The notes beneath the pieces were generated by a model. The model saw only the letters and a program-made list of their open reading frames with translations. It had not been told where the DNA came from and did no database searches. From Patescibacteria group bacterium (lineage in GTDB: Bacteria > Patescibacteriota > Patescibacteriia > JACRDY01): a stretch of 64,000 nucleotides of DNA. Both the position numbers and the translations under genes were made by a program. Each line of letters starts with the position of its first letter. The stretch's first letter is position 1. This document shows positions 43,081-59,377 of the stretch, piece by piece. The stretch spans positions 6,052 through 70,051 of the forward strand of contig JBAZFH010000001.1 of NCBI GenBank assembly GCA_041653535.1, given 5' to 3'.

Positions 43081-43282
43081 TCGCTCTCATGCCGCCTGCC
43101 TGCCGGTAGGCAGGGGCGGGCACTTACTTTTTGTAACCAAAAAGTAAGCAAAAAGTTCCGGGGGCGCAAGTAAGCGCGTGTCCTTATCACCTTAAGGTTT
43201 CCTTACCCCGCCCCGCCCCTGCAGACCATAATTACCGAAACGGTTCGGGGCTTGGCGCGGCTTTCGCCCCCGGACCCCCGAG
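43081..43282 (+). repeat. GC-rich structured element, family copy C
   Basis: Shares the 5' module ctcatgccgcctgcctgccggtaggcaggg, a central perfect hairpin (cttactttttg-taacc-caaaaagtaag), caccttaaggtt and the 3' ggttcgggg...cccccggacccccg modules with the copies at 57453 and 59189. Confidence 0.7.
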
Positions 43283-43307
43283 AAGAAAAACACGATACAC
43301 TGATTTA

Positions 43308-43904
43308 TTATTGGGAAGTATTATTGATTTTGGCGAGGTGGCGCTGGATTATACCAATTATTCTTTCGACAGTGTCGTTCATCTTGCCTTCGTAGTTGAT
43401 TACAGTATAGTCGTAAAATTTGGCCTCTCCCAGTTCATCCTTTGCATTTTGTAGTCTTTTTTTAAACTCTTCCGGATCAATACCAGGGTCGCGGGTAATC
43501 AGACGATTTTTGATGCGAGAGATTCTGTCAGGCTTGATAAAAATTGATAGAGAATTTGGATAGAGTTTTTTTATAACTTTTTTGCCTTTTAACTCAAGGT
43601 TGATAACAATATTAATGCCATTTTTTAGCTTGTCCTCAATATCCTTTTTATTAGTGCCATAATAATGACCGCGATTTAAAACTTTGATATATTCCAAAAA
43701 TCCACCGGCTTTGATTTTTTTCTCAAAATCTTTAACGGAAAGAAATTTGTAGTCAACGCCGTTTTTTTCTCCAGGGCGGGGATCTCGAGAGGTATAAGTG
43801 GTGGTCATCTTGAGGTTTGGTATTTTTTGACACACAGCTTTGCTGACCGATGTTTCTCCGGCGCCAGTGGGACCGGCAATAACAAAAATTATTCCCCGCT
43901 TCAT
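43308..43904 (-). CDS. gmk: guanylate kinase
   Basis: P-loop GPTGAGETS, TTRDPRPGEKNGVDYKF and YYGTNKKDIE motifs. Start at MKRGIIFVIAG. Confidence 0.75.
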   Translation of the reverse strand: MKRGIIFVIAGPTGAGETSVSKAVCQKIPNLKMTTTYTSRDPRPGEKNGVDYKFLSVKDFEKKIKAGGFLEYIKVLNRGHYYGTNKKDIEDKLKNGINIVINLELKGKKVIKKLYPNSLSIFIKPDRISRIKNRLITRDPGIDPEEFKKRLQNAKDELGEAKFYDYTVINYEGKMNDTVERIIGIIQRHLAKINNTSQ

Positions 43905-43909
43905 ATTTT

Positions 43910-44901
43910 TTATTTTGTTGTATTTAAGTAATTTTTCAGATCCGTAGGTAAATCGGAGGAAAACTCCTGCCATTGATTATCTGAGTCGTAAAATCCAAGT
44001 AGGTGAGAATGCAAAAATAGTCTGGGTGGAGGAGCGGTTTCTTTTTTTTGTTTTCTGATCGTGTAGAGTTTGTCGCCGGCCAGCGGGTGTCCCAGGGCTT
44101 TAAAATGAACGCGGATCTGATGAGTGCGACCGGTTTTAATCGTAACTCGAACCAAAGTATAGTTGATAAAGTATTTTACTACATGGTATTCGGTCAGCGC
44201 ATTTTTCCCTTCTTGGCTTAGTGGTCTTGCCGCCATTGTTCCAGCAGATGATCGAGCGATAGAAAAATTTATTGTTCCAGAGTCTTTTTCCATTTTGCCT
44301 CGGACTAGAGCGAGATATTCTTTTTTTACCTTGCGGTCGGCAAATTGACTTTTGAGAAAAATAAACATTTTTTTGTTACGGGCGACAACTAGCAGGCCAG
44401 AAGCATCTTTGTCGATACGATGAACAATGCCCGGGCGATTTTTGTCCTCACCTATTTTTTTTACCTCGGGATATTTTGTCGCTATCTTTTGGATTAGTGT
44501 TCCGGTTAGGTATTTGCTGTCAGGATGAACAGGAATACCAGATGGTTTATTGATTACTAAATAATCGTCGGTTTTGGCGATGATGTCTAGGTTGAAGGGA
44601 GGGAGTTTGGAGCTGGTAGGTGGTAGTTGGTAGTTGGGGACTTGGAAATTGGAACAATTTTTTTATCGATGGTTATCTTGTCGTTGGTTTTCAGAAATTC
44701 GTGGACTGATGGAATCTCGCCGTTAACTAAAACCGCGCCTGATTTGATCAGTTTCTGAACTTGGGCGCGAGGTAGGTCAAGTTTGGTGGTTAGCAAAACA
44801 TCAAGACGGTTATTGTTATCTTTAGATTTTACGGTTATTGATTTCATTATAGTAGTGGGTAGTGGGTAGTGGGTAGTGATATTTTTAATAATTTTACTCA
44901 C
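43910..44901 (-). pseudogene. RluA-family pseudouridine synthase (S4 domain + catalytic domain) interrupted by a frameshift inside a heptanucleotide tandem repeat
   Basis: S4 domain (RLDVLLTTKLDLPRAQVQKLIKSGAVLVNG) lies in one frame and ends at the stop at 44587. The catalytic domain (DIIAKTDDYLVINKPSGIPVHP ... TGRTHQIRVH) is open in another frame from 44662 to 43910. The overlap contains the (TAGTTGG)n tract at about 44610-44637. Confidence 0.6.
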
Positions 44902-44922
44902 TAATCAATACTCGCTACACTG

Positions 44923-46410
44923 TTAAGAAGTCAGTTTTTTAATAAATTTCATCGCTTGTTGTTTTGTCTTAACCCTTCCTCTTAATTGTTCCTCACGTAA
45001 CTTAGCAATTGCTCTACCAACGTGTGGCCCGGGTTTGATTTTGAGTATTTTAATAATCTCATTACCGTCGAGAATCGGAGCGGGCAATGTTTTTTTGTTT
45101 TTAGCTAGCTTGGCAAGAACAGCTATTCTTCTACGCAGAGCGGCGGAGTAGCTGATAAATTTTTCACCTTTGGCAGGAACAGTAGCCATTTCATCGGCGT
45201 GAATCAGTTTAATTAAATCCTGCCCCGCTGGAGCAATAAAAAAATATTTTTCTATGGTAGTGCTTTTCATTTCGGCAATGCGGCCATGAACGGCGATCAT
45301 GTGTTTGGCGATCAGCCAAAAAACTTTATCCGGGTCGCAATCAATATCAGCATCTTTGTAGGCAGATAGCTTTAGCCGATCGCATATTTCTTTGGCTTTT
45401 TTGGCGCCGACTAAGTCGTGTTCGTTAAAACGAATACGATCACTGCCGTTTTTTTCCGGAGTCTGAATAGTGTAAGGTTTACCAATATCGTGAAAAAGTA
45501 GGCCAATAATAAGATTGACCGAAGGATATCCAGGGTAAAGTTTTTGAAATCTTTTGCTAGTCAAAGTTTTTAGGGCTAAGACAGTGTGCTGCCAGACGTC
45601 GCCTTCGCTATGCCAATTGTTTGGCTGCGGACATTTTTTTATTTTTAGTAATTCTGGCATCAGTTGTTTGATAAAACCAGCTTGGTCGAAAAGTCCTAGT
45701 GCTAGTACTGGCGCGGCATAGAAAGCTTTGAGCAAATCTTTGGCAATAGTTTCGCGAGGAACCACAAAATCATTGCCATTTTTTTTGTTGATTTTTGGCG
45801 CCAGTTTTTTTATGGTTGCCCAGGTATTTTTTTCAATAGCAAAATCTAGCTGGCAGGCAAAGCGGATAGCGCGTAGCATCCGACTATAATCTTCGGCAAA
45901 ACGGACGGAGGGTTTACCAACGGCGCGAATGATTTTTTTTACCAAATCCTTTTGGCCGGCAAAAGGATCGACGATTTTACCGCTGATCAGGTCTAGAGCC
46001 ATGGCGTTGACAGTGAAGTCACGCCGAGAAAGGTCTTCTTCGATTTTCAGTCGGTAGTTGGTCTGGACTTTGAAATCGCGATAAGCTCCGCTGCGGTCGA
46101 TGGAATATTCGGTGCGGGGAAGAGCAATGTCAATAGGAGATGGGAACTGGGAACTAGGATCTGGTAGTTTTGGGTTGAACTTAAAAACACCGAAAGATTT
46201 GCCGACTAGGTCAACTTTGCCATTTTTTCTGAGAAAAGCTTCAAGGGGTTTAGCGGGTACGCCGCGGACGAGCAAATCGTAGTCTTTGATTTTTTTGTTC
46301 AGTAGCAGGTCGCGGACCGCTCCGCCAACCAAAAATACTTCCGCAGCAGGAAAAGTGCGGGTTACCTTTTGAGCTAATTGGATTATTGATTTGTCTATTT
46401 TATTTAGCAT
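44923..46410 (-). CDS. cca: CCA-adding tRNA nucleotidyltransferase with HD domain
   Basis: GGAVRD head motif and LLFHDIGKP HD motif. Start is probably MLNKIDK. Confidence 0.8.
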   Translation of the reverse strand: MLNKIDKSIIQLAQKVTRTFPAAEVFLVGGAVRDLLLNKKIKDYDLLVRGVPAKPLEAFLRKNGKVDLVGKSFGVFKFNPKLPDPSSQFPSPIDIALPRTEYSIDRSGAYRDFKVQTNYRLKIEEDLSRRDFTVNAMALDLISGKIVDPFAGQKDLVKKIIRAVGKPSVRFAEDYSRMLRAIRFACQLDFAIEKNTWATIKKLAPKINKKNGNDFVVPRETIAKDLLKAFYAAPVLALGLFDQAGFIKQLMPELLKIKKCPQPNNWHSEGDVWQHTVLALKTLTSKRFQKLYPGYPSVNLIIGLLFHDIGKPYTIQTPEKNGSDRIRFNEHDLVGAKKAKEICDRLKLSAYKDADIDCDPDKVFWLIAKHMIAVHGRIAEMKSTTIEKYFFIAPAGQDLIKLIHADEMATVPAKGEKFISYSAALRRRIAVLAKLAKNKKTLPAPILDGNEIIKILKIKPGPHVGRAIAKLREEQLRGRVKTKQQAMKFIKKLTS

Positions 46411-47355
46411 AACTGCCTTTATTGTATCATAGTTTGATAAATGAAAAGAGCAGGGGGGGACCTGCTCCGCGGGCAAAAACACCGACATGGCGTTTTTGTT
46501 TTTTTGGTTGCTGTTGAGAAGGCGTCGCTAGGTTTTCTCTGCCCCCCAAAACCATGTAAACACCCTCTGGCGTCCTGTCGTTCCAAATTTGATGGAATGG
46601 TTAATAGTGTTGTGACTACAGAACACAACAGGACTAGGCATGTGCACTGATGGTATTTATTATTTTATTCTTTTTTAGGAACATGTCAATATTGATTTTT
46701 AAAGTAATAAAAAGACCCGAGTCAGTTGCGGCTCGGGCTATTTTTGCGGTTAGTTTAAGGCCGAGCCAGAGGAATATGGTGAGGATACCCATAAACCTCT
46801 GGCGTACTCTATGGTGGTGCCATTTTTTGGCGATTTTTGACGGTTTTCCTCTGAACCGTCAGGCACCTGGTCGCTTTGGTAGGCGTAAAGCCGCTAGCAA
46901 ATAAATTGCCTCGGCTTGCTACGGGCATCGCCACGCCATACTCACAGCGGTCGAGAACCCCACGGGTCTGCTTGATGATCAAGAGGAGGGCAAGATCTCC
47001 GCAGGGTTCGTCGCGCGCAACGCCGCCTCGGTCACGAGATTTATACTGGGCGGTAGTTGCGAAAAAAATCAAATCAAGTTGACAGCCCAGAGACAACTCC
47101 AGCCTCTCCTCAATATTCTGACCATCTTATTAACCAATGGCAGAGAAAAGGAGGTTTTGGCATTAGTGTCCCTGGGTCCAGTGACGCAAATTAATAGCGT
47201 CAATCTGGAAAATTTAAATTGTTAATATTTAATACTTCAGCTTGATTAGGTATTATTGCACAGTAGTATTTTTTTGTCAATACTTTGGATGCAGATTCGG
47301 TAAAAGTTGGTTTAATTTGTTTAAATTTAGATAAAAATATGGGAAATATTTTATC

Positions 47356-47386
47356 CACAAAAAGAGACCTGATGGTGCAGGTCTCC
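47356..47386 (-). terminator. intrinsic terminator on minus strand
   Basis: AGAGACCTG-atggtg-CAGGTCTC hairpin followed (minus sense) by TTTTTGTGG. Confidence 0.55.
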
Positions 47387-47580
47387 TGTGGTTGAATTGT
47401 ATTAATCTTTGTGGTAATGAATTATGTGTGGTGCAATCTTGGGGGCGAAGGGCTGCACTTACGCTTCGGCGGTAAACGATATAACTAATTCCACGTCGGT
47501 TTCCTTTTTGCTGCTTGTTTCGCATGTTTGCTTAATTTATGTTTAACCGTTTTAATAACTATTGTTAACAATGGAAAGCA

Positions 47581-47608
47581 TTGATTTAAGACAAAAAGGT
47601 GATATAAT
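47581..47608 (+). promoter_or_regulatory. promoter TTGATT-16-TATAAT (extended TGn) driving the leader element + tRNA-Ile
   Basis: Near-consensus hexamers about 135 nt upstream of tRNA-Ile; the leader contains a partial copy of the GC-rich element. Confidence 0.55.
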
Positions 47609-47621
47609 GCGAGGGAATTGA

Positions 47622-47710
47622 TATTTGCGTATGCCTGCCTGCCGGCAGGCAGGTAGCTTCCACCCAAGGCGGACAGGCAGCGGTTATGCTCCTGCTTCGC
47701 GGGAGGGGTG
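47622..47710 (+). repeat. partial copy (5' module) of the GC-rich element family in the tRNA-Ile leader
   Basis: atgcctgcctgccggcaggcagg matches the family 5' module; hairpin ctcctgcttcgcgggagg. Confidence 0.5.
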
Positions 47711-47744
47711 CATTTTACAATTTGGTTTTTTACTTTTTATTTAT

Positions 47745-47820: not shown

Positions 47821-47977
47821 GTGTGTTTTGTTTAGCAGCTCGGTTTTTACCTAATAATGTCGATCGATGGTTTGTCCCTTCGGGACATCTCCCGTAGGGA
47901 GACAAATCCATCCACGCGCACCATTCTTCGCTCGCTAGAGTGAAGAATGTCCTCCGTAGCTCGAAGAGCGAAGGAGG

Positions 47978-48096: not shown

Positions 48097-48263
48097 CAGC
48101 AGCACTAATATTTAGTAGTTATTAATTTGTAATTTGAAATTATCTTTTGGGCGTATAGCTTCCACCTACGCCCTCATTACATTCGGGCTTCGGCGGACAA
48201 GCATCTGGTATTTCACCATTTGCCTGCCAGTCGAAGCTCGCCAGTAATGGCGAGTGTAGATTG

Positions 48264-48317
48264 GGGCGGTTAGCTCAGTTTCTGCCAGAGGCAGACCCGC
48301 CTTCGGCGGGGGTTAGA
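48264..48317 (+). pseudogene. tRNA-Val 5' fragment (GGGCGGTTAGCTCAG) fused to a 34-nt GC double-hairpin insert
   Basis: 15-nt exact duplicate of the 5' end of tRNA-Val at 48564, followed by tttctgccagaggcagacccgccttcggcggggg + ttaga. The same 48-nt junction recurs at 48683-48730. Confidence 0.6.
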
Positions 48318-48563
48318 TTGTTTTTTTATGTCGGGAATATATGTTTTAAAAAGTTTAAAAAACGGTAAAAGATATGTGGGTAGTACTCGTAAAGATGTAG
48401 ATTTAAGGTTGAAAGAGCATAATTATGGGTCAAATGTTTGGACTAGGCAAAACGGACCTTTTAAATTAATTTATAAAGAAGGTTTTACTGACTATAAAGA
48501 TGCTTTGAAAAGAGAAAGATTTTTGAAGTCAGGCCAAGGCAGAAAATTTTTAGATAGTATTTT
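48279..48563 (+). mobile_element. roughly 285-bp insertion carrying a GIY-YIG nuclease gene, flanked by a 15-bp direct duplication of the tRNA-Val 5' end
   Basis: Direct repeats gggcggttagctcag at 48264-48278 and 48564-48578. The insert begins with two GC hairpins (ctgcc-aga-ggcag; cccgcc-ttc-ggcggg). Confidence 0.5.
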
Positions 48564-48573
48564 GGGCGGTTAG
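48328..48573 (+). CDS. small GIY-YIG nuclease domain protein (YhbQ/UPF0213-like)
   Basis: GIYVLKSLKNGKRYVGST ... RLKEHN ... motif. The last codons and stop overlap the first 10 nt of tRNA-Val. Confidence 0.65.
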   Translation: MSGIYVLKSLKNGKRYVGSTRKDVDLRLKEHNYGSNVWTRQNGPFKLIYKEGFTDYKDALKRERFLKSGQGRKFLDSILGG

Positions 48574-48682: not shown

Positions 48683-48783
48683 TTAGCTCAGTTTCTGCCA
48701 GAGGCAGACCCGCCTTCGGCGGGGGTTAGAGCGTTACATTGACATTGTAAAGGTCCGTGGTTCGAGTCCACGTATGCCCACCA
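48683..48783 (+). pseudogene. 5'-truncated second tRNA-Val(GAC)-like gene, D-arm onward, with the same 34-nt insert in its D-loop
   Basis: ttagctcag + 34-nt insert + ttagagcgttacattgacattgtaa ... ggttcgagtcc ... tatgcccACCA. No matching 5' acceptor strand (GGGCATA) upstream. Confidence 0.55.
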
Positions 48784-49325
48784 AAAGAACACCAGTGATG
48801 GTGTTTTTTTGTTTATTTAAAAAAGCCGACATTGCTATGTGCATCGTCGGCTATTGTTTTGATGCTAATCTTCGTCATCGTCTTCTAGCCCGTCAGAGGG
48901 CGGAAAGATTTCTATTGGATGATCTTCATTGTCTAGTTTTATGGCTAGCGCTAGGAGCATCAAGGCGTTTCTGGTTCTGGGGCTGCGACCGCCTCCGAAA
49001 TAAGTTCGGAAACGTAATACTGGTCCATGATGACCGTCTGTGCATACCCAGGCGTCACCGTCTTCCGAAAACTGGACTATTATTTGTCCTTTTGCCGTTC
49101 CGTCATTATCATCATGAAGTCGGGCGAATGTTTCTTTCGACGATAGGTCTGGAATCTAAAAGGGGTTGTTTAGAACACGATAGGCGTCTTTGATTAATCT
49201 TGCCGTTCCCGGTTCCGGTGGCATTTGCATTTCTCCTTTTGAGGTTGGTTTTTAAAATAAGCAGTGTTTTTTTGGTGCGTTAATAAATGCTAGCAAAAGG
49301 TCGTGTGAATAGCAAATGGGTATTT

Positions 49326-49354
49326 TTGACAAAAAGGCTTAACATTGTTAATAT
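49326..49354 (+). promoter_or_regulatory. promoter TTGACA-17-TAATAT
   Basis: Upstream of the glycoside-hydrolase gene. Confidence 0.5.
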
Positions 49355-49409
49355 TTATAGTCCATTGAAAATAAATAACTGTCGGAAATACATAGAAAGG
49401 GAGGGCACT

Positions 49410-50486
49410 ATGTCGCAAATTGAAAAAAAATTATTTGCTGCAACTGCGATTTTGCGTCGTTGTATTGGCAAGGAAGGTATCTGGGCCGACTCGACTCGTT
49501 ACCAGTATCAGTGCTGGACGCGTGATTTTGTATTGGCAGTGTTGGAAGTTTTGTTGCAATCGCAGCGAGACGACCTAATCCGAAAACATCTTCACGGCAT
49601 TGCCTTTCGGCAACAACCAAACGGTCAAATTCCGATCCTTTTTTTGGAAAATGAGTTTTGCTGGCTCTGGGAAAAAATCAAGCGCAGTATCAAAAATCGT
49701 AAAGTTTCTTTTATGCTGCGTCGGTACTTCACCGGACATCTGTGGGATCTTACTCCCGGGACAAGGGACTCGGAAATCATGTTTCTTGTCGGCATGTATG
49801 AATATGCCAAGCAGTCCGGCGACAACAGTTTGGTTGCCGAGCACAATGTCGGTTTGTACCGAGCGCAGACCTACATTGAAAAATTTTTAATGGAAAACGG
49901 TCTGGTCGTCGGTTGCGATTGGCGCGACACCATGGAGCGTGAGCTTGGCGACAAACCGCTACTGACCAACAATTCTTTGATGTATCGCGCTTATAATCTG
50001 ATGGGCGAAAAAGAAAAAGCCGATCGGTTGCGTGCGAACATCAATTCAGTGTTGTGGGACGGGCAGCGCTATCTGGATTATCCGGATAGCGAGCGCTTTG
50101 ATCCGCTCGGTGGCGCGTTGGCCGTACTGTATGATGTGGCTTTGCCGGAACGTTATGCCAGTATCATCGAAGGGTTCCGGTCGGTTGATACCGATCGCGG
50201 TGTAACCATTCAATGTCGGCATAATCCGATGGTTGCCGAAGAAGCCAAAGTGATCAACCGCACCAACGGCGTGGTGATCTGGCCATTTGTTCTCGGGTTC
50301 ACCGTCTTGGCTTTGATCAAGATGGGTGAGAAAAAGTTGGCCAAGGCGCAGTTCGACAAACTGGTCGCGCTTGACGGTTTCCGCGAGTGGTACGACCCAG
50401 CGACTGGCAAGGGTTATGGCGCCAAAGAGCAGCTTTGGTCCGCGGCGCTTTATTTGCGGGCACTGAGAGCGATTCGCAATATGTGA
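49410..50486 (+). CDS. (alpha/alpha)6-barrel glycoside hydrolase, glycogen-debranching/GH63/GH15-like
   Basis: RBS AAAGGGAGGG; start MSQIEKK. Motifs CWTRDFVLAVL and QLWSAALYLRA typical of six-hairpin glycosidases. GC about 52%. Confidence 0.55.
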   Translation: MSQIEKKLFAATAILRRCIGKEGIWADSTRYQYQCWTRDFVLAVLEVLLQSQRDDLIRKHLHGIAFRQQPNGQIPILFLENEFCWLWEKIKRSIKNRKVSFMLRRYFTGHLWDLTPGTRDSEIMFLVGMYEYAKQSGDNSLVAEHNVGLYRAQTYIEKFLMENGLVVGCDWRDTMERELGDKPLLTNNSLMYRAYNLMGEKEKADRLRANINSVLWDGQRYLDYPDSERFDPLGGALAVLYDVALPERYASIIEGFRSVDTDRGVTIQCRHNPMVAEEAKVINRTNGVVIWPFVLGFTVLALIKMGEKKLAKAQFDKLVALDGFREWYDPATGKGYGAKEQLWSAALYLRALRAIRNM

Positions 50487-50500
50487 AAAAGGAAGAGAAT

Positions 50501-50746
50501 ATGTTCGAAATAACCAAGCCGATCGACACGGCAGCTGATACGCAAGGAGAGCTTCAGGTTTTTTCCGCAAGCCCTGAAGGAAGCGAAGTTGACCCCGGTA
50601 GCATTAGTCACGTTATTGGTAGTGACGAAGTGAGTATTCGGTCGAACGTCGCTTTCGGTGGATCGATTTCCGTGAAGGGACGGGAAAGTTTGAAACTTTT
50701 GAGGGATGCCTTGGTCAGTATATGCAAGACTGAGGATATTAAGTAA
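50501..50746 (+). CDS. hypothetical small protein
   Basis: RBS AAAAAGGAAGAG + ATG at 50501; 81 aa. Confidence 0.45.
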   Translation: MFEITKPIDTAADTQGELQVFSASPEGSEVDPGSISHVIGSDEVSIRSNVAFGGSISVKGRESLKLLRDALVSICKTEDIK

Positions 50747-50858
50747 GGATATTAAGTAATAAACAATCAACCAAAACCGGTGAGATGTAATATTTCGTCG
50801 GTTTTTTGTTTTAGGTGGCGCGCGGCTGCGTGGCTCGCAGCAAGGGGAAATACTGTTC

Positions 50859-50879
50859 CCAGCTACCAACTACCAGCTA
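50859..50879 (+). repeat. heptamer tandem repeat (CCAGCTA CCAACTA CCAGCTA) upstream of promoter
   Basis: Three tandem 7-nt units ending 22 nt before the -35 hexamer TTGACA at 50902. Confidence 0.7.
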
Positions 50880-50901
50880 CTAACGTGGGGACAACCCTTT
50901 C

Positions 50902-50930
50902 TTGACATAATCGGTAAAGTTAAGTAAGAT
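50902..50930 (+). promoter_or_regulatory. promoter TTGACA-17-TAAGAT
   Basis: Drives the small ORF at 50957. Confidence 0.5.
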
Positions 50931-50956
50931 ACAAAATTAACAGTTTATATAATTTT

Positions 50957-51112
50957 ATGAAAATTAATTGGCCAAAATACAACCTAATCGCCTACACCAA
51001 CCGCTTTGTTAGCGGAGCTTTTGGCATGCTTGTGGTTTTTCTAACCGCAATTGCTGCTGGCAGCTCTCTGAGGGCAGAATATTTTTGGCGCTTTTATTTT
51101 CTAATGACTTAA
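50957..51112 (+). CDS. candidate 51-aa hydrophobic peptide with its own promoter and terminator
   Basis: MKINWPKYNLIAYTNRFVSGAFGMLVVFLTAIAAGSSLRAEYFWRFYFLMT. No SD. Terminator hairpin atatcctgctctaacgcaggatat + T-run at 51137-51168. Confidence 0.25.
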   Translation: MKINWPKYNLIAYTNRFVSGAFGMLVVFLTAIAAGSSLRAEYFWRFYFLMT

Positions 51113-51230
51113 TTTGTCTTATATATAAAAACCTCGAAATATCCTGCTCTAACGCAGGATATTTTTTAACCACCTCTCAAAAGCCACGAACTTTAACAAT
51201 TATATAGACCTTACCTAAAGGAGGTAGACC

Positions 51231-53060
51231 ATGTCGGACTGGGAAGACCAAACCGCAGGCAAAGACAGGAATCTGCATTTTTTTGTCACCGGAATGAGAA
51301 CTCTTTGGGATTTGCTCGGGCAAGAAAAAGGAAGGCTGACGGCGCTACTCGGCTGGCAAGTATTCCTTTCGTCGCTTACCCTGCTTTTTCCTTATTTACT
51401 GAAACTGGTTTTTGACCAGTTACCGCTGGTACTGGCCGGCACTGCTTCGATTGGATATATTGTTCAACTGATAGTAGCGATGTTTGTCATCAAAACCTGC
51501 GCCCAATTTTTGCATCATTTTTCCAAGGAGAAAAGATTTGCCAACAGTGTAATCTATCTGGAAAACTGGTGGCCGGTAATGGCGCAACAAAAACTGCTTG
51601 ATCTATCGCTTGGTTACCATGAAAAAGAAAACACCGGCAAAAAAATCGCTCGCATCAATAAAGGCTGTGACAAGCTGGTAGAAATTCTCATGCATCTGTT
51701 TTGGGGATTTTTGCCGCAGCTGTTTTTTCTGGTAGTGAACCTGGCTATCGTGTTAATTATTGATTGGCGACTGGGACTAGCTTTTGCTCTACCGTTTATC
51801 CCGGCAGCGATCATTAATATCAAAGCCTTTGATCGTTTTTCCGCAGACTGGGAAGAATGGGAAAGGAAAAAAGAAGTCTCGACCGGGTTTTTCTGCCAGT
51901 CGATAATCAACGTCAACACTGTTCAGAGTTTTGTTCAGGAAAAAGAAGAAGAAAGCCGTCTATGCGAAGTGCGTCAAAGCATGGAAAAATTGGACATCAA
52001 AGTTAATCGTCGGTTGCAAAAATGGCTTTTTGCCGTTGGTTCGATATTGCACCTGTGTTTTGTACTGACCATCGCTCTCGGCGTTTATCTGGTGATAAAC
52101 AAACAGACAAGTGTCGGTACATTGGTTTATCTGGTGGCCACCGGCACCGTTACTATCGATTCGCTTTGGGAGACGATCAACGTCTACATGCGAATCATGC
52201 GCAATCTAGTGGCTGTTCGCCGGATGAAAGAATTGATCGATGAACCGGTGGATATTGTTAACGGCGCTGAAGCCAAAACACTCGACGAGTTTGTTGGCGA
52301 TGTCGCCTTCGAGCAAGTAAACTTTGTTTATCCGGGCAAAACCGAGCCGGTGCTTGATGACTTTAACTTGAGTATTGCTGCCGGACAAATGGTGGCTCTG
52401 GTAGGAAAAAGCGGTGAAGGCAAAACCACAATCGCGCGACTAGTGTCTCGGATGTATGATCCGATCAATGGGCAGATAACCCTAGATCACAACGACATTC
52501 GCGATCTAGATTTGTACTGGTATCGCCGACTGTTTGCAGTAGTGCAGCAAGATGTCGACATTTTTGACGGTACGCTTTTCTACAACATCAGTTATCCGTG
52601 CGCTGGCGCTACTGAGGAGCAAGTGCTGGAAGCTTTGTCTGCCGCTCACCTAGGAGTGGTACTAAAAGACGCCAAGCGTTTTCCCGATGGCCTACAAACT
52701 CAAGTAGGCGAGCGAGGAGTACGGCTTTCTGGCGGTGAACGTCAGCGTGTCGGTATTGCTCGCGCCTATCTAGCGCTACTTTGCGGCGCAAGGATACTGA
52801 TCCTCGACGAAGCAACGTCGAGTCTGGATAGTGAAGCAGAGAGGGCGATCCAGACAATGCTTGACAAACTTCGTTCCAGGCAAGGTATTACTGTAATTGC
52901 TATTGCCCACCGGCTGTCAACTATCCAGCGCGCTGACAAAATCTGCGTGATCAGCGGCGGGACGATTACCGAGCAAGGCGATCATCAACAACTGATGAAA
53001 CAAAACGGACTCTATTCACATCTGGTTGAGCTGCAACAGCTCGGTGATTTGCGAGAATAG
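51231..53060 (+). CDS. ABC transporter, fused permease/ATPase exporter (MsbA/MdlB-like)
   Basis: Six-TM domain + Walker A GKSGEGKTT, signature LSGGERQRVGIARA, Walker B ILILDEATS. RBS AAAGGAGG. Confidence 0.85.
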   Translation: MSDWEDQTAGKDRNLHFFVTGMRTLWDLLGQEKGRLTALLGWQVFLSSLTLLFPYLLKLVFDQLPLVLAGTASIGYIVQLIVAMFVIKTCAQFLHHFSKEKRFANSVIYLENWWPVMAQQKLLDLSLGYHEKENTGKKIARINKGCDKLVEILMHLFWGFLPQLFFLVVNLAIVLIIDWRLGLAFALPFIPAAIINIKAFDRFSADWEEWERKKEVSTGFFCQSIINVNTVQSFVQEKEEESRLCEVRQSMEKLDIKVNRRLQKWLFAVGSILHLCFVLTIALGVYLVINKQTSVGTLVYLVATGTVTIDSLWETINVYMRIMRNLVAVRRMKELIDEPVDIVNGAEAKTLDEFVGDVAFEQVNFVYPGKTEPVLDDFNLSIAAGQMVALVGKSGEGKTTIARLVSRMYDPINGQITLDHNDIRDLDLYWYRRLFAVVQQDVDIFDGTLFYNISYPCAGATEEQVLEALSAAHLGVVLKDAKRFPDGLQTQVGERGVRLSGGERQRVGIARAYLALLCGARILILDEATSSLDSEAERAIQTMLDKLRSRQGITVIAIAHRLSTIQRADKICVISGGTITEQGDHQQLMKQNGLYSHLVELQQLGDLRE

Positions 53061-53217
53061 ATAGTTCAATCAACCAAAGCCCCTGGCAGCAATGTCGGGG
53101 GTTTTTAATAGCGCATAGCCGATAGTCCTCCTTCGCCAAGGCTGCGGCGTACAGGCTCATAGCTGATAGGGGATAAAAAAATAACGCCGGTAATTTTTGG
53201 TTACCGGCGTTGATGTG

Positions 53218-53799
53218 TTAAGGCGTGGTTCTATAGAGAGGGTCGATGATCTGTAGTTCTTTGTTGGCGTGCCAGAAGTGTTCGAGAGATCCTTTGTGTC
53301 TATTCCACCACTCAACTTCTTTTGTTGGCTCAATGAACTCTGGCCAAAGGAATGGAATGTGTATGGAGCTGAGAGCTACGCCTGTGACATCGTTGCTATC
53401 GGCGCGTATCCGTATTAATTTGTTGCCATCAAAGGTATGGCCATAGAGTTTCATGATAATACGGATCGACACGTCTTCGTAATGCGGCGCTTTAGCTTTT
53501 TGGATGGAGTAATCCAGTCCGGACTCTACGTCTGATTCTAGCTCTGTCCAAACTTCGCTGGCCTGTTTGAATAGATCTGTCCACAGATAGCGAGTATTTG
53601 GGCTAAGAAAATGCAGCTCGTAGCAAAGTTCATAAAGCCGCAGTGCTTCTGGCAGGTCGAGCAGTCGTGGACCGAGACGATGTCGTATGCGCCAGTTGCC
53701 AGCGCCGTAGGCTTTGTCGTAACCGGCCAGCCTGTCATTTTTGGCTTCGCCAAACCATCCGGGGTTAGAGACTGTTATCCAACGTTTTGACAGCTTCAT
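53218..53799 (-). CDS. hypothetical protein
   Basis: RBS AAAAGGAGCA + ATG; 193 aa with no recognisable family. Confidence 0.55.
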   Translation of the reverse strand: MKLSKRWITVSNPGWFGEAKNDRLAGYDKAYGAGNWRIRHRLGPRLLDLPEALRLYELCYELHFLSPNTRYLWTDLFKQASEVWTELESDVESGLDYSIQKAKAPHYEDVSIRIIMKLYGHTFDGNKLIRIRADSNDVTGVALSSIHIPFLWPEFIEPTKEVEWWNRHKGSLEHFWHANKELQIIDPLYRTTP

Positions 53800-53926
53800 C
53801 TGTTTGCTCCTTTTTTAGTTTTGGTATTTCAAGACAGTATTCTATTTTAGCGGGGGAGTAATATTATGTCAATAATTGTTGGACAAATGTTGACGAAATC
53901 CTGACAACAGTTTACACTGAGTCTAT

Positions 53927-54700
53927 ATGGAAATACAATCAATGCTCAAAAAAATAGGATTAAATGACAAAGAGGTTAAAGTTTATTTAACCTTATTTGA
54001 AAATGGGGCAACCAAACCGACGGTTTTGGCAAAGATGACAAAGTTAAATCGAGCCACTTTATATAATGTAGCTCAAGGGTTAATTTCCAAAGGAATTGTT
54101 TCCGGAGATTTGAGTGGCAAGTCGCTTGTTTTTACGCCACTGCCACCTAGTGATTTAGAAAAGATTCTTGCTCCAGCTAAAAGAGATTTGGAGGAGAAGG
54201 CGAGTTTAATCGAAGAGGCGGTTAGCGAGCTTAACTTAATAGTTAGCGGCAAGCAATATCCTATACCCAAAATTAGGTTTATCGAAGAAAATAATTTAGA
54301 AAAATTTCTTTTTGATAATTTAGAAAAATGGCAGGATGAAGTGATTGGTTCCGATGGTGTCTGGTGGGGCTACCAAGATCATACCTTTGCCGCTAGCTTT
54401 GAAAAGTGGCTGGACCAAACTTGGCGAACAACTCAAAGTAAAAATAGTCATTATCAGGCGCAAGTTTTTAGTAATGTGTCGGAAACCGAAAGCAAGCTGA
54501 AACGTAAATATGCCAATCCTAAACGACAAGTTAGGTTTTTAGAAAATACCAGTTTTACTGCTACCACTTGGGTTTGTGGCGATTATTTGATTATGATTAT
54601 GACGCAGCAACACCCATATTATCTGATAGAGATTCATGACCAGTTTTTGGCTCAAAATACCAAGGAAGTTTTTAAGAAACTTTGGGAGCTATCGAAATAG
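53927..54700 (+). CDS. TrmB-family transcriptional regulator
   Basis: N-terminal winged HTH (LNDKEVKVYLTLFENGATKPTVLAKMTKLNRATLYNVAQGLISKGIV). Confidence 0.7.
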   Translation: MEIQSMLKKIGLNDKEVKVYLTLFENGATKPTVLAKMTKLNRATLYNVAQGLISKGIVSGDLSGKSLVFTPLPPSDLEKILAPAKRDLEEKASLIEEAVSELNLIVSGKQYPIPKIRFIEENNLEKFLFDNLEKWQDEVIGSDGVWWGYQDHTFAASFEKWLDQTWRTTQSKNSHYQAQVFSNVSETESKLKRKYANPKRQVRFLENTSFTATTWVCGDYLIMIMTQQHPYYLIEIHDQFLAQNTKEVFKKLWELSK

Positions 54701-54900
54701 CTTTTAGCACCTTTGTTGTCATCCTGAACCCTTCGTCCCGCGTCGCGGGACTCAGGATAAACTCCGTTAAGGATCCCTCTTGATTGCCCACGACGGAAAA
54801 ATACTAATATTCACGTAATCATCGACGATTAAGTTTTATTTAATATTCGCTTTCATTTCTTTTCTGGAGGGATTCTTCGCTCCGCTCAGAATGACAATCC

Positions 54901-54921
54901 CCAACTACCAACTACCAACTA
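54901..54921 (+). repeat. heptamer tandem repeat (CCAACTA)x3 occupying the -35 region of a TATAAT promoter
   Basis: ccaactaccaactaccaacta + cc + gtatgc + TATAAT (54930-54935) + 8 nt + ATG at 54944. Possible leaderless transcript. Confidence 0.7.
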
Positions 54922-54943
54922 CCGTATGCTATAATTATTCCAT

Positions 54944-56038
54944 ATGAACAAACAACAAGAAATCCTGGCCTTATCTAAACGGCTTATCTCTATACCCAGC
55001 GTGGTGGGTGATTTTGCGGCACAGCAAAAATGTCTAGATTTTATAGAAAGATATTTCAAAGGATTGCCGGCATTAAAAGTGAAGCGGTTTCGGTTTGGCG
55101 ATCACGGCTCACTACTGTTTTATAATCAATCAGTCAAAAATCCCGACGTTTGTTTTTACGGTCACGTAGATGTGGTTAAAGCAGAAAAAAGACAGTTTTC
55201 TCCTAAGGTCAAAGGTGACAAACTTTTCGGCCGAGGAGCAAGCGACATGAAAGCGGTACTTGCTGCGCAGATGGTGCTACTCAAAGATTTGATAAAGTCG
55301 GGATATGCCGGTTCGGTTGCTTTGCTTGTCGTCACCGACGAAGAAATCGGCGGCGCGCTTGGTGCACAGAAAATTGCTGACGAGTTTAATTTTAGACCGG
55401 GATGCATTTTGGTTCCCGACGGCGGTGACAATTGGAAAATGTCGATCGGCGAAAAAGGTGTACACTGGACAGAAATTGCTTTTGAAGGAAAACCGGATCA
55501 CGGTTCACGGCCGTGGCTGGGGGTTAATGCTGGTGAAGAACTAATGGCGGCTTATGAAAAAATCAAGAAATCTTTTCGGCAAGCTAAATCAGAAAAAGAC
55601 AGTTTGTTGACCATTAATCTTGGCGCAATCGAGGGTGGAGTGAACTATAACCAAGTGATGCCTAGCGCGACCATGGGTCTGGATATCCGTTACCCCAAAA
55701 ATATTAAACTATCAGAAATCAAGAAAAAAATTAAAGCAGCACTACCGCTATATGCCAAGGTGAAAAGTTTGGAAGAGTCGCCAGCTTGGTCAGTGGATCT
55801 GGATAATAAACTGATCAAAAGATTTACCCGTTCCGCTTGCAAAGTTTTACGTCGCAAAAAAATCGAACAGCAGATTTCCTGTGGCGCATCTGACGCCCGG
55901 ATGTTTGGTTGGATTGGTGTGCCGACGATTGTTTTCAAACCCGTCTGTGGTGGGATGCATTCTCGTGATGAGTGGGTGAGTATAAAAGCATTGGGTAAAT
56001 TTTACGATATTTACAAGGACTTTTTGCTTAGCAAATAA
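54944..56038 (+). CDS. M20-family metallopeptidase/deacylase (ArgE/DapE-like)
   Basis: Motifs FYGHVDVV, GRGASDMKA, VVTDEEIGG. Confidence 0.75.
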   Translation: MNKQQEILALSKRLISIPSVVGDFAAQQKCLDFIERYFKGLPALKVKRFRFGDHGSLLFYNQSVKNPDVCFYGHVDVVKAEKRQFSPKVKGDKLFGRGASDMKAVLAAQMVLLKDLIKSGYAGSVALLVVTDEEIGGALGAQKIADEFNFRPGCILVPDGGDNWKMSIGEKGVHWTEIAFEGKPDHGSRPWLGVNAGEELMAAYEKIKKSFRQAKSEKDSLLTINLGAIEGGVNYNQVMPSATMGLDIRYPKNIKLSEIKKKIKAALPLYAKVKSLEESPAWSVDLDNKLIKRFTRSACKVLRRKKIEQQISCGASDARMFGWIGVPTIVFKPVCGGMHSRDEWVSIKALGKFYDIYKDFLLSK

Positions 56039-56159
56039 AGCTGTTTGACAACGGTTCTACCCAGAGTTACGATAAAGATGTATGAATAGTATTTATCAAT
56101 CTTTTGTTTTCTTTTTCGGATTTTTCTTTAGAAAGCGGGGATTTGATATTGCTTAAAGA

Positions 56160-56188
56160 TTGACAAAACTGATCAAAAGTGATATAAA
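56160..56188 (+). promoter_or_regulatory. promoter TTGACA-17-TATAAA
   Basis: Followed by a 5'UTR hairpin ccctatc-aatccc-gataggg and RBS AAGGAG. Confidence 0.5.
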
Positions 56189-56250
56189 TCCCTATCAATC
56201 CCGATAGGGGTTTTTAGTTCGTTAAAAACGAAAAGAAAGGAGTGCTAAAA

Positions 56251-57393
56251 ATGCAGCACAGGGGTATCTTTTTTCATCACACTCGAGATGTCGTTGATGG
56301 TATGCCCGAGTTGCTGTTTAGTTTTCCTTTGCGGATGCTAATAGCGGCTCGGCAGGGTGACAAGGTAGTACTACCGATCGGCGTCGAGCCGCTGGAGTTG
56401 GAATTACTTAACCGTCTCGGCTTTGGTCCGCGACCGGAAGACGTAGTTTACGTTGATGGCAATTTGACTTCGGCGGATTTGCACGGCAAGGTGTTTCCGT
56501 TTTCCGGTTGCTCAGTGCAGCAGCGACAAATGGTTGAGTTGGCAGGACTAGACTTTGCCGCACCGTCTTTGGAGATTTGTCGTCAGGCTGACAGCAAAGC
56601 TTTTTTTCAGTCGGTGCTTCATGATTTGCGTCTGCGGCCGTTTGGTAGGATCGTGGTAACCGGCGATCGAGAGAGGATGAAGGAAGTGGTCAAGGAAATG
56701 CTTTCTCGTCACGGGTCGCTACTACTAAAAGCAGCGCACTCAACTAGCGGTTTGCAGCAACACTTGATCATGTCGCTTGCAGACTTGCCGGAAGATTTGG
56801 CGCTGAAAGGAAAAGCGGTGGTGCAGGAATTTATTCCGCACGTTGTTTCTCCCTCGGCGCAATACTACCTGAAACCGGGCGGTAACTGGAAATTGAATTC
56901 CATGACCACGCAGATTTTGGACGGTCGTCATCATGTGGGAAATATTTTCCCGCCGACTGATCTGTCGCCGGAAGTGATTGCCGAGATTGAAAAAATCGGC
57001 AGTCGTATCGTGCCGCGTTACGCTGAGCTTGGATACTACGGTCCGCTTAGCGTAGACTTTATGCTAACGGAAAACAATCGGTTGTTTCCCTGTGAGGTCA
57101 ACGCTCGAGTTACCGCTCCGTGGTACCCTTGGGAAGCGGCTCGGCGCAACTTGGGCGCGCCGGTTCCATTTTGGATGAAAAGTCTGCGGATTAATCCAAA
57201 GACAACGATTGCAAAAATGGAAAAAGTCTTGGGAAAACTTTTGTTTAACCCCAAGACCAAAAAAGGCGCGCTGCCTTTCTCTTTTTTGCCCAAGCAGAAT
57301 TTTACCTATCTGGTGATTTACGGTTCGAATCAAAACGAATTCGTGAACCGTCTAGTGCCCCAAGTACAGTGGGCACTGGCTAAACTAGGCTAA
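56251..57393 (+). CDS. ATP-grasp domain protein (paralog A)
   Basis: ATP-grasp signatures LLLKAAHSTSG, VVQEFIP and CEVNARVTAPWYP. RBS AAGGAG + 8 nt + ATG. Confidence 0.6.
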   Translation: MQHRGIFFHHTRDVVDGMPELLFSFPLRMLIAARQGDKVVLPIGVEPLELELLNRLGFGPRPEDVVYVDGNLTSADLHGKVFPFSGCSVQQRQMVELAGLDFAAPSLEICRQADSKAFFQSVLHDLRLRPFGRIVVTGDRERMKEVVKEMLSRHGSLLLKAAHSTSGLQQHLIMSLADLPEDLALKGKAVVQEFIPHVVSPSAQYYLKPGGNWKLNSMTTQILDGRHHVGNIFPPTDLSPEVIAEIEKIGSRIVPRYAELGYYGPLSVDFMLTENNRLFPCEVNARVTAPWYPWEAARRNLGAPVPFWMKSLRINPKTTIAKMEKVLGKLLFNPKTKKGALPFSFLPKQNFTYLVIYGSNQNEFVNRLVPQVQWALAKLG

Positions 57394-57452
57394 CAATCAA
57401 TGAACCGTCTCGCTACGCAGTGGGACGGTTTTTCTTTTTTCCACGACTGCTC

Positions 57453-57660
57453 TCATGCCGCCTGCCTGCCGGTAGGCAGGGGTAGGCAGATACCCAGCCG
57501 CAGAGCCCTGCAGCTGGGTAACCAAAGATTTTCGGGGGTGGCATAAGCCCGAGTTTTATAGCACCTTAAGGTTCTTTAAACCCGCCTCGCCCCTTCCGCT
57601 CACTTACGTTCGACTCTCGGGGTTCGGCTCGGGGCAACGCCACCCCCGAACCCCCGATGC
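57453..57660 (+). repeat. GC-rich structured element, family copy A
   Basis: 5' module ctcatgccgcctgcctgccggtaggcaggg; central hairpin ccagccgcag-agccc-tgcagctgg; gattttcgggggtggcataagcccgag; caccttaaggtt; 3' cggggttcgg...ccgaacccccg hairpin. Confidence 0.7.
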
Positions 57661-57801
57661 TAAGCATTTTTATTTTATACATAATAAAAAATAAAAAGGA
57701 GTATTGACGGTAAGAAAAAAAGCTGTTAAATTACAAATTCGAGGCTTTTTGAAAAACAACAAAGCGAAAAAAAATACAGGAGGCTATACAGGAGGCTATA
57801 A

Positions 57802-59052
57802 ATGAGAGGTGCTAACGCTGCGGTACATATCCATGACGTTGTTGCGTCTTACCCTCTGCAAACAGTGCCGGGGCTAGGACGCTACGCTTGGCGATCACTA
57901 CTTCTCAAAGGAGCAAAGGTTGTCGGGCGTCATCCCAGTTTGAACGACTATCTTGCTTTTCTTAAGGAGGTGAAGGTTGGTAATGGCGGGGAAGTACTAA
58001 CTGCTTATGACGATCATCTTTACGACGTTGTTTTGGGCGATCGTAACTTACAGCGCGAGATTGATCGTTTGCTGTGCGTTGAAGATCGAACACTGCGACT
58101 ATTTGCCATCACCGAAAATGATGAAAAATTTTTGCGGTTGACCGGTTGGCAGAAAAAATCCGAGGTTTTTGCTCCGCCGCTACAGCTTTCGCTACGGGCA
58201 AATGACAAGGCATTTTTACGCCGGCTGGCGGTAGAAAAAGGAATCGGAAATATTTTTCCGCCCTTTGTTATCGTTGCAACAGTTGACGGTCTGGCCCGAG
58301 CGGTGGAGAGGATGTCTCGTGTCAATGACAGTGACTTTATCGTGGTCAAAGCAACCAATCTGGCCAGCGGTGAAGGCATGACTTTCACCAGTGAAAGAGA
58401 AAAGGCGATTGCCTTTGGTCGCAAGCTTTTTGCCAATGGTCAAAAAGAGGTGATTGTCGAAGCCGGCTACGACTCTGACAGTTATAGTATGCAATGGGAG
58501 CTGCGCCCACGCGATTTTCGCTTTCTCGGTGCGTCAGCTCAAATCATGAGTCATCACGGTAAAGTGCATGAAGGTAATATCGTGTCTTCGTCTTTACGGC
58601 AACTACCCGGTATTACCGAAAGAGAAATTGCTCGGATGCAGGGTCGCGCTTATCCACTGATCGATTGGTTTTGGCGGCAAGGACACCGCGGTATCTTTGG
58701 AATTGATTTTATCAAAACCAAGAAAGAACGTCGGCATCGTTTGCTACTGCTGGAATCCAATGCTCGTGTCACTGCCAGTACTTATCCTTTTTCGGTCGGT
58801 CGACAGCTTGCCGATCGCGGCATCGTTGAATACGGTATTGCCGCGCGAAATTGCTATCCATCAAGTCAGATGAATTGGGATGGACTGGTGAAGTTTTTGG
58901 GTAGCGATATTTTCGACGGAGAGAAAGGGATCTTACCTTATATTCCTAACTGTTTGCCGGAAAAAGTCGGGCTGATGGCGATCGCACCAGACGCTCCGGC
59001 TGCCGAAGATATGCTGGCGCACTACCACTGGGCGCTAGCACGTAATACGTAA
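57802..59052 (+). CDS. ATP-grasp domain protein (paralog B)
   Basis: LLESNARVTASTYPFS parallels CEVNARVTAPWYPWE of paralog A. Tandemly duplicated SD acaggaggctat x2 before ATG. Confidence 0.55.
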   Translation: MRGANAAVHIHDVVASYPLQTVPGLGRYAWRSLLLKGAKVVGRHPSLNDYLAFLKEVKVGNGGEVLTAYDDHLYDVVLGDRNLQREIDRLLCVEDRTLRLFAITENDEKFLRLTGWQKKSEVFAPPLQLSLRANDKAFLRRLAVEKGIGNIFPPFVIVATVDGLARAVERMSRVNDSDFIVVKATNLASGEGMTFTSEREKAIAFGRKLFANGQKEVIVEAGYDSDSYSMQWELRPRDFRFLGASAQIMSHHGKVHEGNIVSSSLRQLPGITEREIARMQGRAYPLIDWFWRQGHRGIFGIDFIKTKKERRHRLLLLESNARVTASTYPFSVGRQLADRGIVEYGIAARNCYPSSQMNWDGLVKFLGSDIFDGEKGILPYIPNCLPEKVGLMAIAPDAPAAEDMLAHYHWALARNT

Positions 59053-59188
59053 ACAATAAGTCAGAACCCCCGTTCGTCTAGGCGAATGGGGGTTTTAAAA
59101 TTGCTCCCTTCTGTGTGCGGTGAAGGCGTTTGTTAATAAGTTCTTGGATAATGAAACGAACACCTTTATTTTACTATTAGTTTTTTGC

Positions 59189-59377
59189 CCTCATGCCGGG
59201 CCGGCAGATACTTTCTGCAAACAGAAAGTATCCAAAGATTTTCGGGGGTGGCATAAACCCGAGTTTATAGCACCTTAAGGTTTTCTTACCCCGCCTCAAC
59301 CCATTCCGCTCGCCCCGCCAAGGCGGGGCTCGACTCTCAGGGTTTCGGCTCGGGGCAATGCCACCCCCGAACCCCCG
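59189..59377 (+). repeat. GC-rich structured element, family copy B
   Basis: ctcatgccgggccggcag; central perfect hairpin gatactttctg-caaa-cagaaagtatc; gattttcgggggtggcataaacccgag; caccttaaggtt; 3' tcggctcggggcaatgccacccccgaacccccg. Confidence 0.7.

Follow-up and report, generated by a model that had tools for sequence, protein, structure and literature searches.

What are the GC-rich units of about 200 nucleotides (nt) that recur between the genes of one Patescibacteria genome: genes for a structured RNA, or copies of a dispersed repeat? The question is raised by a stretch of 64,000 nt from a Patescibacteria group bacterium (assembly GCA_041653535.1, contig JBAZFH010000001.1, positions 6,052 to 70,051), hereafter called the window. 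The first-pass annotation of this DNA had described three full copies and several partial ones, and had argued for a functional structured RNA rather than a simple repeat. We observed that the full copies are real and that their fold is clearly under selection. As to their nature, we give about an even chance to the reading that the units are a lineage-specific, non-autonomous composite repeat of this one genome, which would spread through a single-stranded intermediate.

The three full copies, A, B and C, all lie on the + strand, and we reset their boundaries to those given in Table 1. A profile hidden Markov model (HMM) made from the copies recovers the full copies of the window with nhmmer E-values of about 1e-54 to 1e-63. 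A fourth full copy, E, came from a scan of public metagenome contigs (locus L020) and was placed elsewhere on the same contig by means of its neighbouring TPR protein. Copy D, already proposed as a partial copy at 41270-41345, was upheld by the HMM; what remains of its core is the final ~60-70 nt (HMM positions 152-217), and its 22-nt 3' extension GTTTTAACAACTTAATATTTTT (41352-41373) is identical to that of copy E at 22/22 positions. A second partial copy had been drawn at 47622-47710, of which only a homologue of the first hairpin, P1, survives; it stands about 20 nt downstream of a promoter-like site (47581-47608; transcription start putative). Two further candidates, 48150-48262 and 40150-40330, had to be dropped, since neither shares a 10-mer with the family or matches the HMM, the covariance model giving a chance-level score at 40229-40295 (9.2 bits, E=0.88). 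Beyond copies A-D and the P1 homologue, no more family matches were found in the window with the HMM or with the covariance model run without filters.

The full units A, B and C measure 193-211 nt and have a GC content of 58.5-61.6%, against 42.7% for the window, and every copy is intergenic, as had been noted. The conserved modules also exceed chance: the 21-nt 5' palindrome occurs six times (0.0 in shuffles), the 3' motif CCCCCGRACCCCCG five times (0.37 in shuffles), and CACCTTAAGGTT is identical in copies A, B and C. The 5' module had been attributed to every copy, but copy C is without 20 nt of it. The copied block amounts to ~200 nt, or ~225 nt when an AT-rich 3' extension is included; an extension on the 5' side (59139-59186, ~50 nt) is weakly supported by the comparison of C with E (p ~0.013). 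All four window copies, A-D, are on the + strand. The GC skew is positive throughout the window, whose G-rich (+) strand is the one that carries the C-rich strand of the element.

Copies A, B, C and E share one fold, in which two 5' hairpins, P1 and P2, are followed by a long stem, P3, closing a branched domain. P1 lies 7 nt from the left end and has the base AUGCC...GGCA; it is 33 nt long in A, B and E and 13 nt in C. The GTAG of its tip, a 20-nt palindrome, sits in the loop, and the lone P1 homologue is directly followed by GTAG. P2 had been reported as a different, perfectly paired hairpin in each copy. It is indeed paired throughout, but its 11 bp are perfect only in A and C; copy E has one G.U pair, and copy B, whose P2 core is swapped for a GC-rich hairpin, has one A.A and one C.A mismatch. 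The assignment of these hairpins to the copies had been permuted: by their pairing arms, cttactttttg/caaaaagtaag belongs to A, ccagccgcag/ctgcagctgg to B and gatactttctg/cagaaagtatc to C. After P2, a conserved linker of 8-9 nt (CAAAGAUUU or CAAAAAGUU) leads to P3, a stem of 10-14 bp whose ~100-nt branched domain contains the invariant palindrome ACCUUAAGGU. P3 ends 8 nt from the right end, and the 8-nt tail ACCCCCGA is the last part of the unit. The 5' end of the unit reads GCYCTCATGCC and the reverse complement of its 3' end CGGGGGTYCGG; P1 and the 3' stem are unrelated in sequence.

Table 1. Coordinates of the copies and of their parts in the window
Feature	Position	Strand	Remarks
Copy A, full unit	43083-43282	+	nhmmer E=1e-62
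Copy B, full unit	57449-57659	+	nhmmer E=4e-58
Copy C, full unit, short P1	59187-59379	+	nhmmer E=1e-54
Copy D, 5'-truncated	41281-41373	+	nhmmer E=0.004; aligned 41295-41354, envelope 41281-41373
P1 homologue alone, 23 nt	47631-47653	+	ATGCC-TGCCTGCCGGCAGGCAGG, near 5' end of tRNA-Ile leader
P2	43123-43148 (A), 57489-57522 (B), 59207-59232 (C)	+	fast-changing yet paired hairpin
P3 domain of copy C	59241-59371	+	arms 59241-59254 and 59358-59371
P3 arms of copies B and A	57531-57542/57639-57650 (B), 43157-43166/43265-43274 (A)	+	equivalents of the arms in copy C
10-bp palindrome ACCTTAAGGT	59272-59281, 43189-43198, 57563-57572		perfect, invariant in the four full copies
Hairpin GCCCCGC-CAAG-GCGGGGC, 18 nt	59312-59329	+	copy C only
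AT-rich 3' extension of copy C	59380-59401	+	TTAATATTTTT, same offset in D and E

The claim that stems are kept through sequence change was borne out. In the consensus fold of the four full copies, 98% of the cells are paired and, on the + strand, 10 pairs carry double changes, where column shuffles give 4.7±1.3 and slid controls 0-3; these counts rest on four sequences in two subfamilies, with a structure that was itself taken from them. Pairing figures are almost the same for the reverse strand (9-10 double-change pairs over both strands, against 4-5 in shuffles), a level that none of 500 shuffles reaches. Between copies A and E, 17 of 198 positions differ, and seven of the 17 fall in the 26-nt P2 (Fisher p=0.002). 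Six of these seven make up three compensatory doubles and none breaks a pair of the consensus fold. P2 diverges about five times faster than the rest of the unit and yet keeps its pairing. As a control for circularity, E was threaded onto the single-sequence fold of A and vice versa; this reduced the stem-preserving excess, for which p ranged from 0.001 to 0.11 according to strand and reference.

Such figures suit the rival explanation that the units are paralogous genes of a new structured small RNA that works in trans or within a ribonucleoprotein, with a conserved core and a variable but paired P2. We regard this as a serious rival, though at well under an even chance. The tRNA-like GC content in a 43% GC genome would fit it, as would the presumed transcription of the P1 homologue within the tRNA-Ile leader, suggested by the position of the promoter. 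The weak excess left by the single-sequence folds, as well as the small number of sequences, counts against it. Stem-preserving change is also known in mobile GC-rich DNA palindromes, the GC clusters of yeast mitochondria (PMC4478555), and therefore it is not by itself proof of an RNA gene.

If an RNA is made, from which strand would it come? Against shuffles, the + strand folds with z-scores of -3.6 to -6.5 and the minus strand with -4.7 to -5.4. The latter is the more stable by 10-15 kcal/mol and adds a helix, P0, which pairs the conserved tail with the linker; the small-RNA explanation slightly favours this strand, since linker and tail then pair as a helix. Cells paired through wobbles on one strand only number 11 for the + strand and 19 for the minus strand. 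The P1 homologue has the + orientation downstream of a tRNA promoter. The z-scores of the two strands are similar and each strand has wobble-only pairs of its own; an RNA could come from either.

The surroundings of the copies point away from independent genes. The neighbours (gmk/rplS, ATP-grasp-like, DHH and TPR genes) are unrelated, within a window of ordinary housekeeping genes (23S and 5S rRNA, five tRNAs, uvrA, rplS, gmk, CCA-adding enzyme and valyl-tRNA synthetase, ValRS). Copy A has gmk (minus strand, stop at 43308) on one side and the rplS hairpin and promoter on the other; read on the minus strand, it lies inside the 3' untranslated region (UTR) of gmk, ahead of the terminator 43025-43045, and is there the only copy within a transcription unit. 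Copy B starts 8 nt past the T-run of the terminator of an ATP-grasp-like open reading frame (ORF 56242-57393) and its end is separated by 45 nt from the -35 box in the promoter of the next gene, ORF 57802-59052. Copy C is flanked by convergent terminators, 59065-59096 (+) and ~59453-59490 (-). Copy D, which starts at the T-run of the terminator 41243-41273, is likewise between convergent terminators. In the + direction a terminator-like hairpin precedes every copy, at a distance of 8 to ~100 nt.

A scan of both strands for promoters and terminators showed none that accompanies the copies consistently: there was no promoter-like site upstream on the + strand, and on the minus strand only weak sites (9/12 matches) at variable distances. 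No U-tract follows the terminal stems. A promoter and a terminator of its own at a fixed place, as expected for an independent small-RNA gene, were hence not seen, and the start of B and D right after a terminator T-run also speaks against the small-RNA explanation. Peptide coding was rejected, since the longest frame from the conserved 5' module stops after six codons. A cis-regulatory leader or riboswitch was also rejected: the neighbours are unrelated, and in B and E a promoter separates the element from the downstream gene.

The copies had been said to belong to no known non-coding RNA family, and the Rfam scan suggested at that time agrees. With Rfam 15, on both strands, at gathering thresholds and at E<=10, using the window and 241-nt inputs, no family matches the copies; at E<=10 the only scores came from miRNA and promoter models and were at chance level (E 2-7, well under the gathering scores of these models). 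The lack of an Rfam relative is a further point against a small-RNA gene.

The positions of the copies could also suggest sites on double-stranded DNA, where ACCTTAAGGT and its flanking motifs would bind a dimeric protein (a regulator, or a nucleoid or partition protein) and the hairpins would be incidental. This palindrome is found nowhere else in the window, and the gene of a TrmB-type regulator (53927-54700) is close to copies B and C. Such sites would leave the compensatory changes in P2, P3 and P4 unexplained; moreover, copy D is without the palindrome and the copies hold no consistent position relative to promoters. We consider this reading very unlikely.

We then turn to the relatives. 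The closest available gmk homologues are 55-65% identical and belong to three relatives, L027, L028 and L029, in which the gene order CCA-RluA-gmk-rplS is kept; L027 and L028 also have ValRS-DHH upstream. The covariance-model search of related genomes that had been suggested was run on these three (~37 kb), as was the profile HMM, and the element was found neither at the syntenic site nor elsewhere. The gmk-rplS spacer measures 95, 178 and 103 nt in the relatives and 347 nt in the source genome, a difference of about the size of copy A. When L024 was considered together with them, there was again no orthologue: the best score of the covariance model, which has 152 positions and represents the 3' domain, was 15 bits at L028 9923-10014, on the outer stem only. 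This absence weighs against an old small-RNA gene.

A wider pattern scan with CGGGGGYG-N15-30-CACCTTAAGGTT covered 596 Gb of genomes and, in addition, metagenome contigs and viral contigs. It returned the source organism only; 19 other loci are chance matches without the other modules. A second viral scan and a BLAST search against phages and plasmids gave no match. In an independent assembly of the same organism (SRR18595300), four of the copies, A, B, C and E, contain contig ends, which a repeat would be expected to cause.

Copies B and C, whose conserved blocks (repeat families D18 and D19) are 95% identical, follow two tandem ATP-grasp-like paralogues. One could therefore take the units for leftovers of segmental duplications, for example of the tandem duplication of these two genes. 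The paralogues are only 24% identical, which indicates that B and C are not relics of that gene duplication, and A, D and E stand at unrelated loci with unrelated flanks; we find this explanation, already disfavoured, scarcely credible. Judging from these identities, B and C would be far younger than the ATP-grasp-like duplication, or would have been homogenised.

Both copies stand at the right end of a block of ~10.5 kb (49200-59700) that contains a GH-like gene, an ABC exporter, a TrmB regulator, an M20 peptidase and the two ATP-grasp-like paralogues. The block is missing at the corresponding position in L027 and L028, where the DHH gene and the CCA-adding enzyme gene are separated by little beyond a gene of 131 amino acids (aa) and, in L027, a tRNA/GIY-YIG stretch.

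How do the copies differ from each other? The differences are mainly short GC-rich hairpins, perfect or nearly so, added at the tips of hairpins. Of the full copies, only C lacks the 20-nt P1 tip; copy C alone has the 18-nt hairpin of Table 1, and copy D alone a 15-nt mini-hairpin, TCCGC-TCAGG-GCGGA. The AT-rich 3' extension is common to C, D and E only, the third base is T in A and B and C in C and E, and the type of P3 domain associates A with E and B with C. Two P3 pairs change from C-G to U-A between these subfamilies. The third base, the P1 tip, the P2 type, the P3 domain and the 3' extension each group the copies differently, so that no simple tree accounts for them. Fragments of both ends also occur, namely the 5'-truncated copy D and the lone P1 homologue. 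Such mosaics and fragments are difficult for the small-RNA explanation.

Similar hairpins are found outside the family. A GC-rich multi-hairpin of 118 nt (40206-40323), just past the uvrA terminator, is unrelated to the 200-nt units. Its 20-nt hairpin CTCCCCCTTGGCAGGGGGAG is identical at 20/20 positions in relative L029 (5699-5718), whose gmk is 55% identical. In the same way, the 14-mer CGCCAGTAATGGCG of the tRNA-Val leader (48239-48252) is found at 14/14 positions in L029 (4127-4140), between RluA and gmk. These two shared mini-hairpins stand at non-equivalent places. It seems that the clade carries a shared pool of GC-rich hairpin modules, of which the 200-nt unit is the largest composite seen.

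We therefore prefer a dispersed repeat to an old RNA gene: the element is missing from the three relatives, stands at unrelated sites in one orientation, leaves fragments of its ends, forms mosaics and has no signals of its own. The same observations leave the earlier conclusion, a functional structured RNA rather than a simple repeat, without the support it would need. The unit would be non-autonomous, propagated by an enzyme encoded elsewhere in the genome. The intermediate might be a folded single strand, either single-stranded DNA (ssDNA) of the kind used by HUH/Y1 transposases (IS200/IS605-RAYT type) or an RNA that is then reverse-transcribed, and selection for that fold would account for the covariation. 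The long-range covariation of P3 implies that selection acts on a single-stranded form, ssDNA or RNA. Copies already in place may have a secondary role as RNA structures within 3' UTRs or read-through transcripts, for example copy A in the 3' UTR of gmk on the minus strand.

Several points weigh against such a repeat. P3 covaries with arms ~100 nt apart, and the unpaired CACCUUAAGGUU, CAAAGAUUU and CUCAUGCC are invariant between subfamilies despite the much faster divergence of P2, a pattern that is typical of functional RNA and that the small-RNA explanation would account for. The minus-strand helix P0 consists largely of G.U pairs in all four copies, and in copy E two substitutions turn P0 wobbles into A-U and G-C; both are easier to explain at the RNA level. 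In addition, no target-site duplication was found at the boundaries of A, B, C and E, so that mobility is deduced from the distribution only; the one flank-to-core match of 10 nt, in copy C, is no more than chance would give. No conserved target motif was seen either, the left flanks ending TTCG, ACTG, TTTG and TTTG. A Pfam search of the window detected no transposase, reverse transcriptase or HUH gene and no RAYT domain; it showed only an Xer-like integrase gene (29704-30525). Finally, the extent searched was small, ~75 kb of the source genome and ~37 kb of the three syntenic relatives.

Could the units be remnants, internally deleted or terminal, of a larger mobile element located elsewhere in the genome, such as an insertion sequence without inverted ends (IS200/IS605, IS110/IS1111 or IS91) or an intron? 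In that case the conserved fold may be the non-coding RNA of the parent, for example an omega-RNA or a bridge RNA, and 190-210 nt is within the size range of such RNAs. The units share with the IS200/IS605 type the lack of terminal inverted repeats (those found are internal stems only) and of target-site duplications, subterminal hairpins near each end, and a single orientation of the four window copies; a 5'-truncated copy such as D would also fit. The conserved target tetra- or pentanucleotide and the related left and right hairpins of that type were not found. Moreover, the group II intron, HEARO and IS605-orfB models of Rfam gave no match at E<=10 with the 241-nt inputs, no guide-like pairing of internal or variable segments with the flanks was detected, and no tnpA, tnpB, iscB or IS110 gene, nor any other transposase gene, adjoins the copies. 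We judge this origin improbable.

A bolder extension, to which we attach only a small chance, is that the units represent an undescribed class of ~200-nt structured RNA that a mobile element specific to the Candidate Phyla Radiation (CPR) would carry or have given rise to, with the hypervariable yet paired P2 as a specificity or identity module and a machinery that seeds short GC-rich hairpins into hairpin tips, tRNA-like fragments included. A guide- or bridge-type RNA or a small ribozyme would be examples of such a class.

Hairpin inserts in the style of those in the copies also interrupt the D-loop and T-loop of nearby tRNA fragments. Both tRNA leaders hold the 11-mer TAGCTTCCACC (47654-47664 and 48156-48166) downstream of strong promoter-like sites, and in the second leader it forms the loop of a hairpin, GGGCGTA/TACGCCC. 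Fragments of tRNAs with GC-rich mini-hairpin inserts lie beside intact tRNA genes at 47859-47923, 48263-48317, 48328-48573 and 48683-48784. The 3' 35 nt of tRNA-Ile(TAT) are duplicated, with a T-loop that holds a 30-nt two-hairpin insert, and the 5' 25 nt of tRNA-Val(GAC) are duplicated, with a 33-nt two-hairpin insert in the D-loop that includes a C(UUCG)G loop. The tRNA-Val 5' fragment is followed by an 81-aa GIY-YIG ORF overlapping the start of the intact tRNA-Val, and a third tRNA-Val-like copy without the 5' acceptor strand has the same insert. Relative L027 (4931-5470) has, in the same neighbourhood, a tRNA-Val 5' fragment whose D-loop insert is a different one, together with a GIY-YIG ORF.

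A separate observation concerns L028 9905-10095. It was considered as a homologue of the unit and rejected, since only the outer GC stem matches the model, at the 15 bits given above. Here, after rplS, a GC-rich fold of ~170 nt (z=-4.7) is accompanied by a TTGACA-type promoter and an intrinsic terminator, with no Rfam match; the region is likely an unannotated small RNA.

The window has other features of its own. The 23S rRNA gene (14866-18277) has 3231 nt against a 2925-nt model, with several insertions, and is followed by the 5S gene; no 16S gene was found in the window, and a gene for a '23S rRNA intervening sequence protein' (8654-9025) lies 6 kb upstream of the 23S. We also observed two apparent fusions, one of phosphoglycerate kinase with class II fructose-bisphosphate aldolase (20240-22531, 763 aa) and the other of dUTPase with dCMP deaminase (1441-2493, 350 aa). 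Between the CCA-adding enzyme gene and the tRNA-Ile promoter, ~1.1 kb (46500-47600) contain no convincing ORF and no Rfam match, with a moderately GC-rich segment at 46985-47040. A tandem array of CTTTTTAGC-like units with a 9-nt period (25126-25177) lies downstream of ORF 23727-25049.

The genomes of CPR/Patescibacteria are small and known almost only from metagenomes, and in the literature that we searched we came across no account of non-coding repeats or RNAs in them. If the units are a dispersing composite repeat, reduced genomes too would host active non-autonomous elements, the nesting of GC-rich hairpins would build larger structures, and short-read assemblies would break at predictable places. 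If they are an RNA family, it would be a new one, structured, specific to this lineage and unusual in having a hairpin that evolves fast. On either reading, a concrete covariance model and a set of loci are available for tests in metatranscriptomes.

Which known systems does the element resemble? ERIC/IRU, Yersinia YPAL, Neisseria Correia, Rickettsia RPE and pneumococcal BOX elements are intergenic, non-coding and lineage-specific repeats of 100-200 nt, often co-transcribed with their neighbours, and BOX elements are modular (A, B and C modules). These repeats, akin to miniature inverted-repeat transposable elements (MITEs), end in inverted repeats or form a single long hairpin, and target duplications of TA or a similar sequence are made by several of them, whereas the unit described here has unrelated ends and a branched fold; a MITE in the strict sense was rejected because inverted ends and target duplication are lacking. 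The PATEs of the IS200/IS605 group, omega-RNAs and IS110 bridge RNAs are associated with elements that have no inverted ends or target duplication, subterminal hairpins and a strand-specific orientation, and IS200/IS605- and IS110-type elements have, at one of their ends, a structured non-coding RNA 150-250 nt long. The present unit departs from them in having no Rfam match, no adjoining tnpA, tnpB, iscB or IS110 gene, no target motif and no guide-like complementarity.

The repetitive extragenic palindromic (REP) unit is an imperfect palindrome of 20-40 bp with an unpaired GTAG or CGTC tag at one end (PMC3733652). REPs are mostly downstream of genes, many are plausibly transcribed and may act as RNA, and together with the bacterial interspersed mosaic elements (BIMEs) that they form they are thought to be mobilised in trans (PMC3733652). 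Like these, the element consists of GC-rich intergenic palindromic modules arranged in mosaics, foldable in RNA or ssDNA and found between convergent genes (PMC3733652), and one of its modules, the P1 palindrome, also stands alone. It differs in that a fixed 200-nt multi-branch unit is copied, that GTAG sits in the P1 loop and not at one end, and that no RAYT gene was seen in the window; with 190-210 nt and such a GTAG, it was rejected as a REP/BIME unit proper, although for the P1 module by itself the GTAG directly after the lone homologue is suggestive.

The GC clusters of yeast mitochondria and of other AT-rich mitochondrial genomes are mobile GC-rich palindromes whose stems are constrained and which merge and shuffle into new composites (PMC4478555). 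Again, GC-rich hairpins are found sporadically in an AT-richer genome and diversify fast (PMC4478555), here through hairpin-shaped insertions and deletions at tips. In contrast, those clusters are simple hairpins of ~30-50 nt with putative target duplications in an organelle host, while the unit reported here has ~200 nt, conserved unpaired motifs, a long-range stem and a bacterial host. By comparison with these systems, the element belongs to no described family, and it probably works most like a BIME or a composite of mitochondrial GC clusters.

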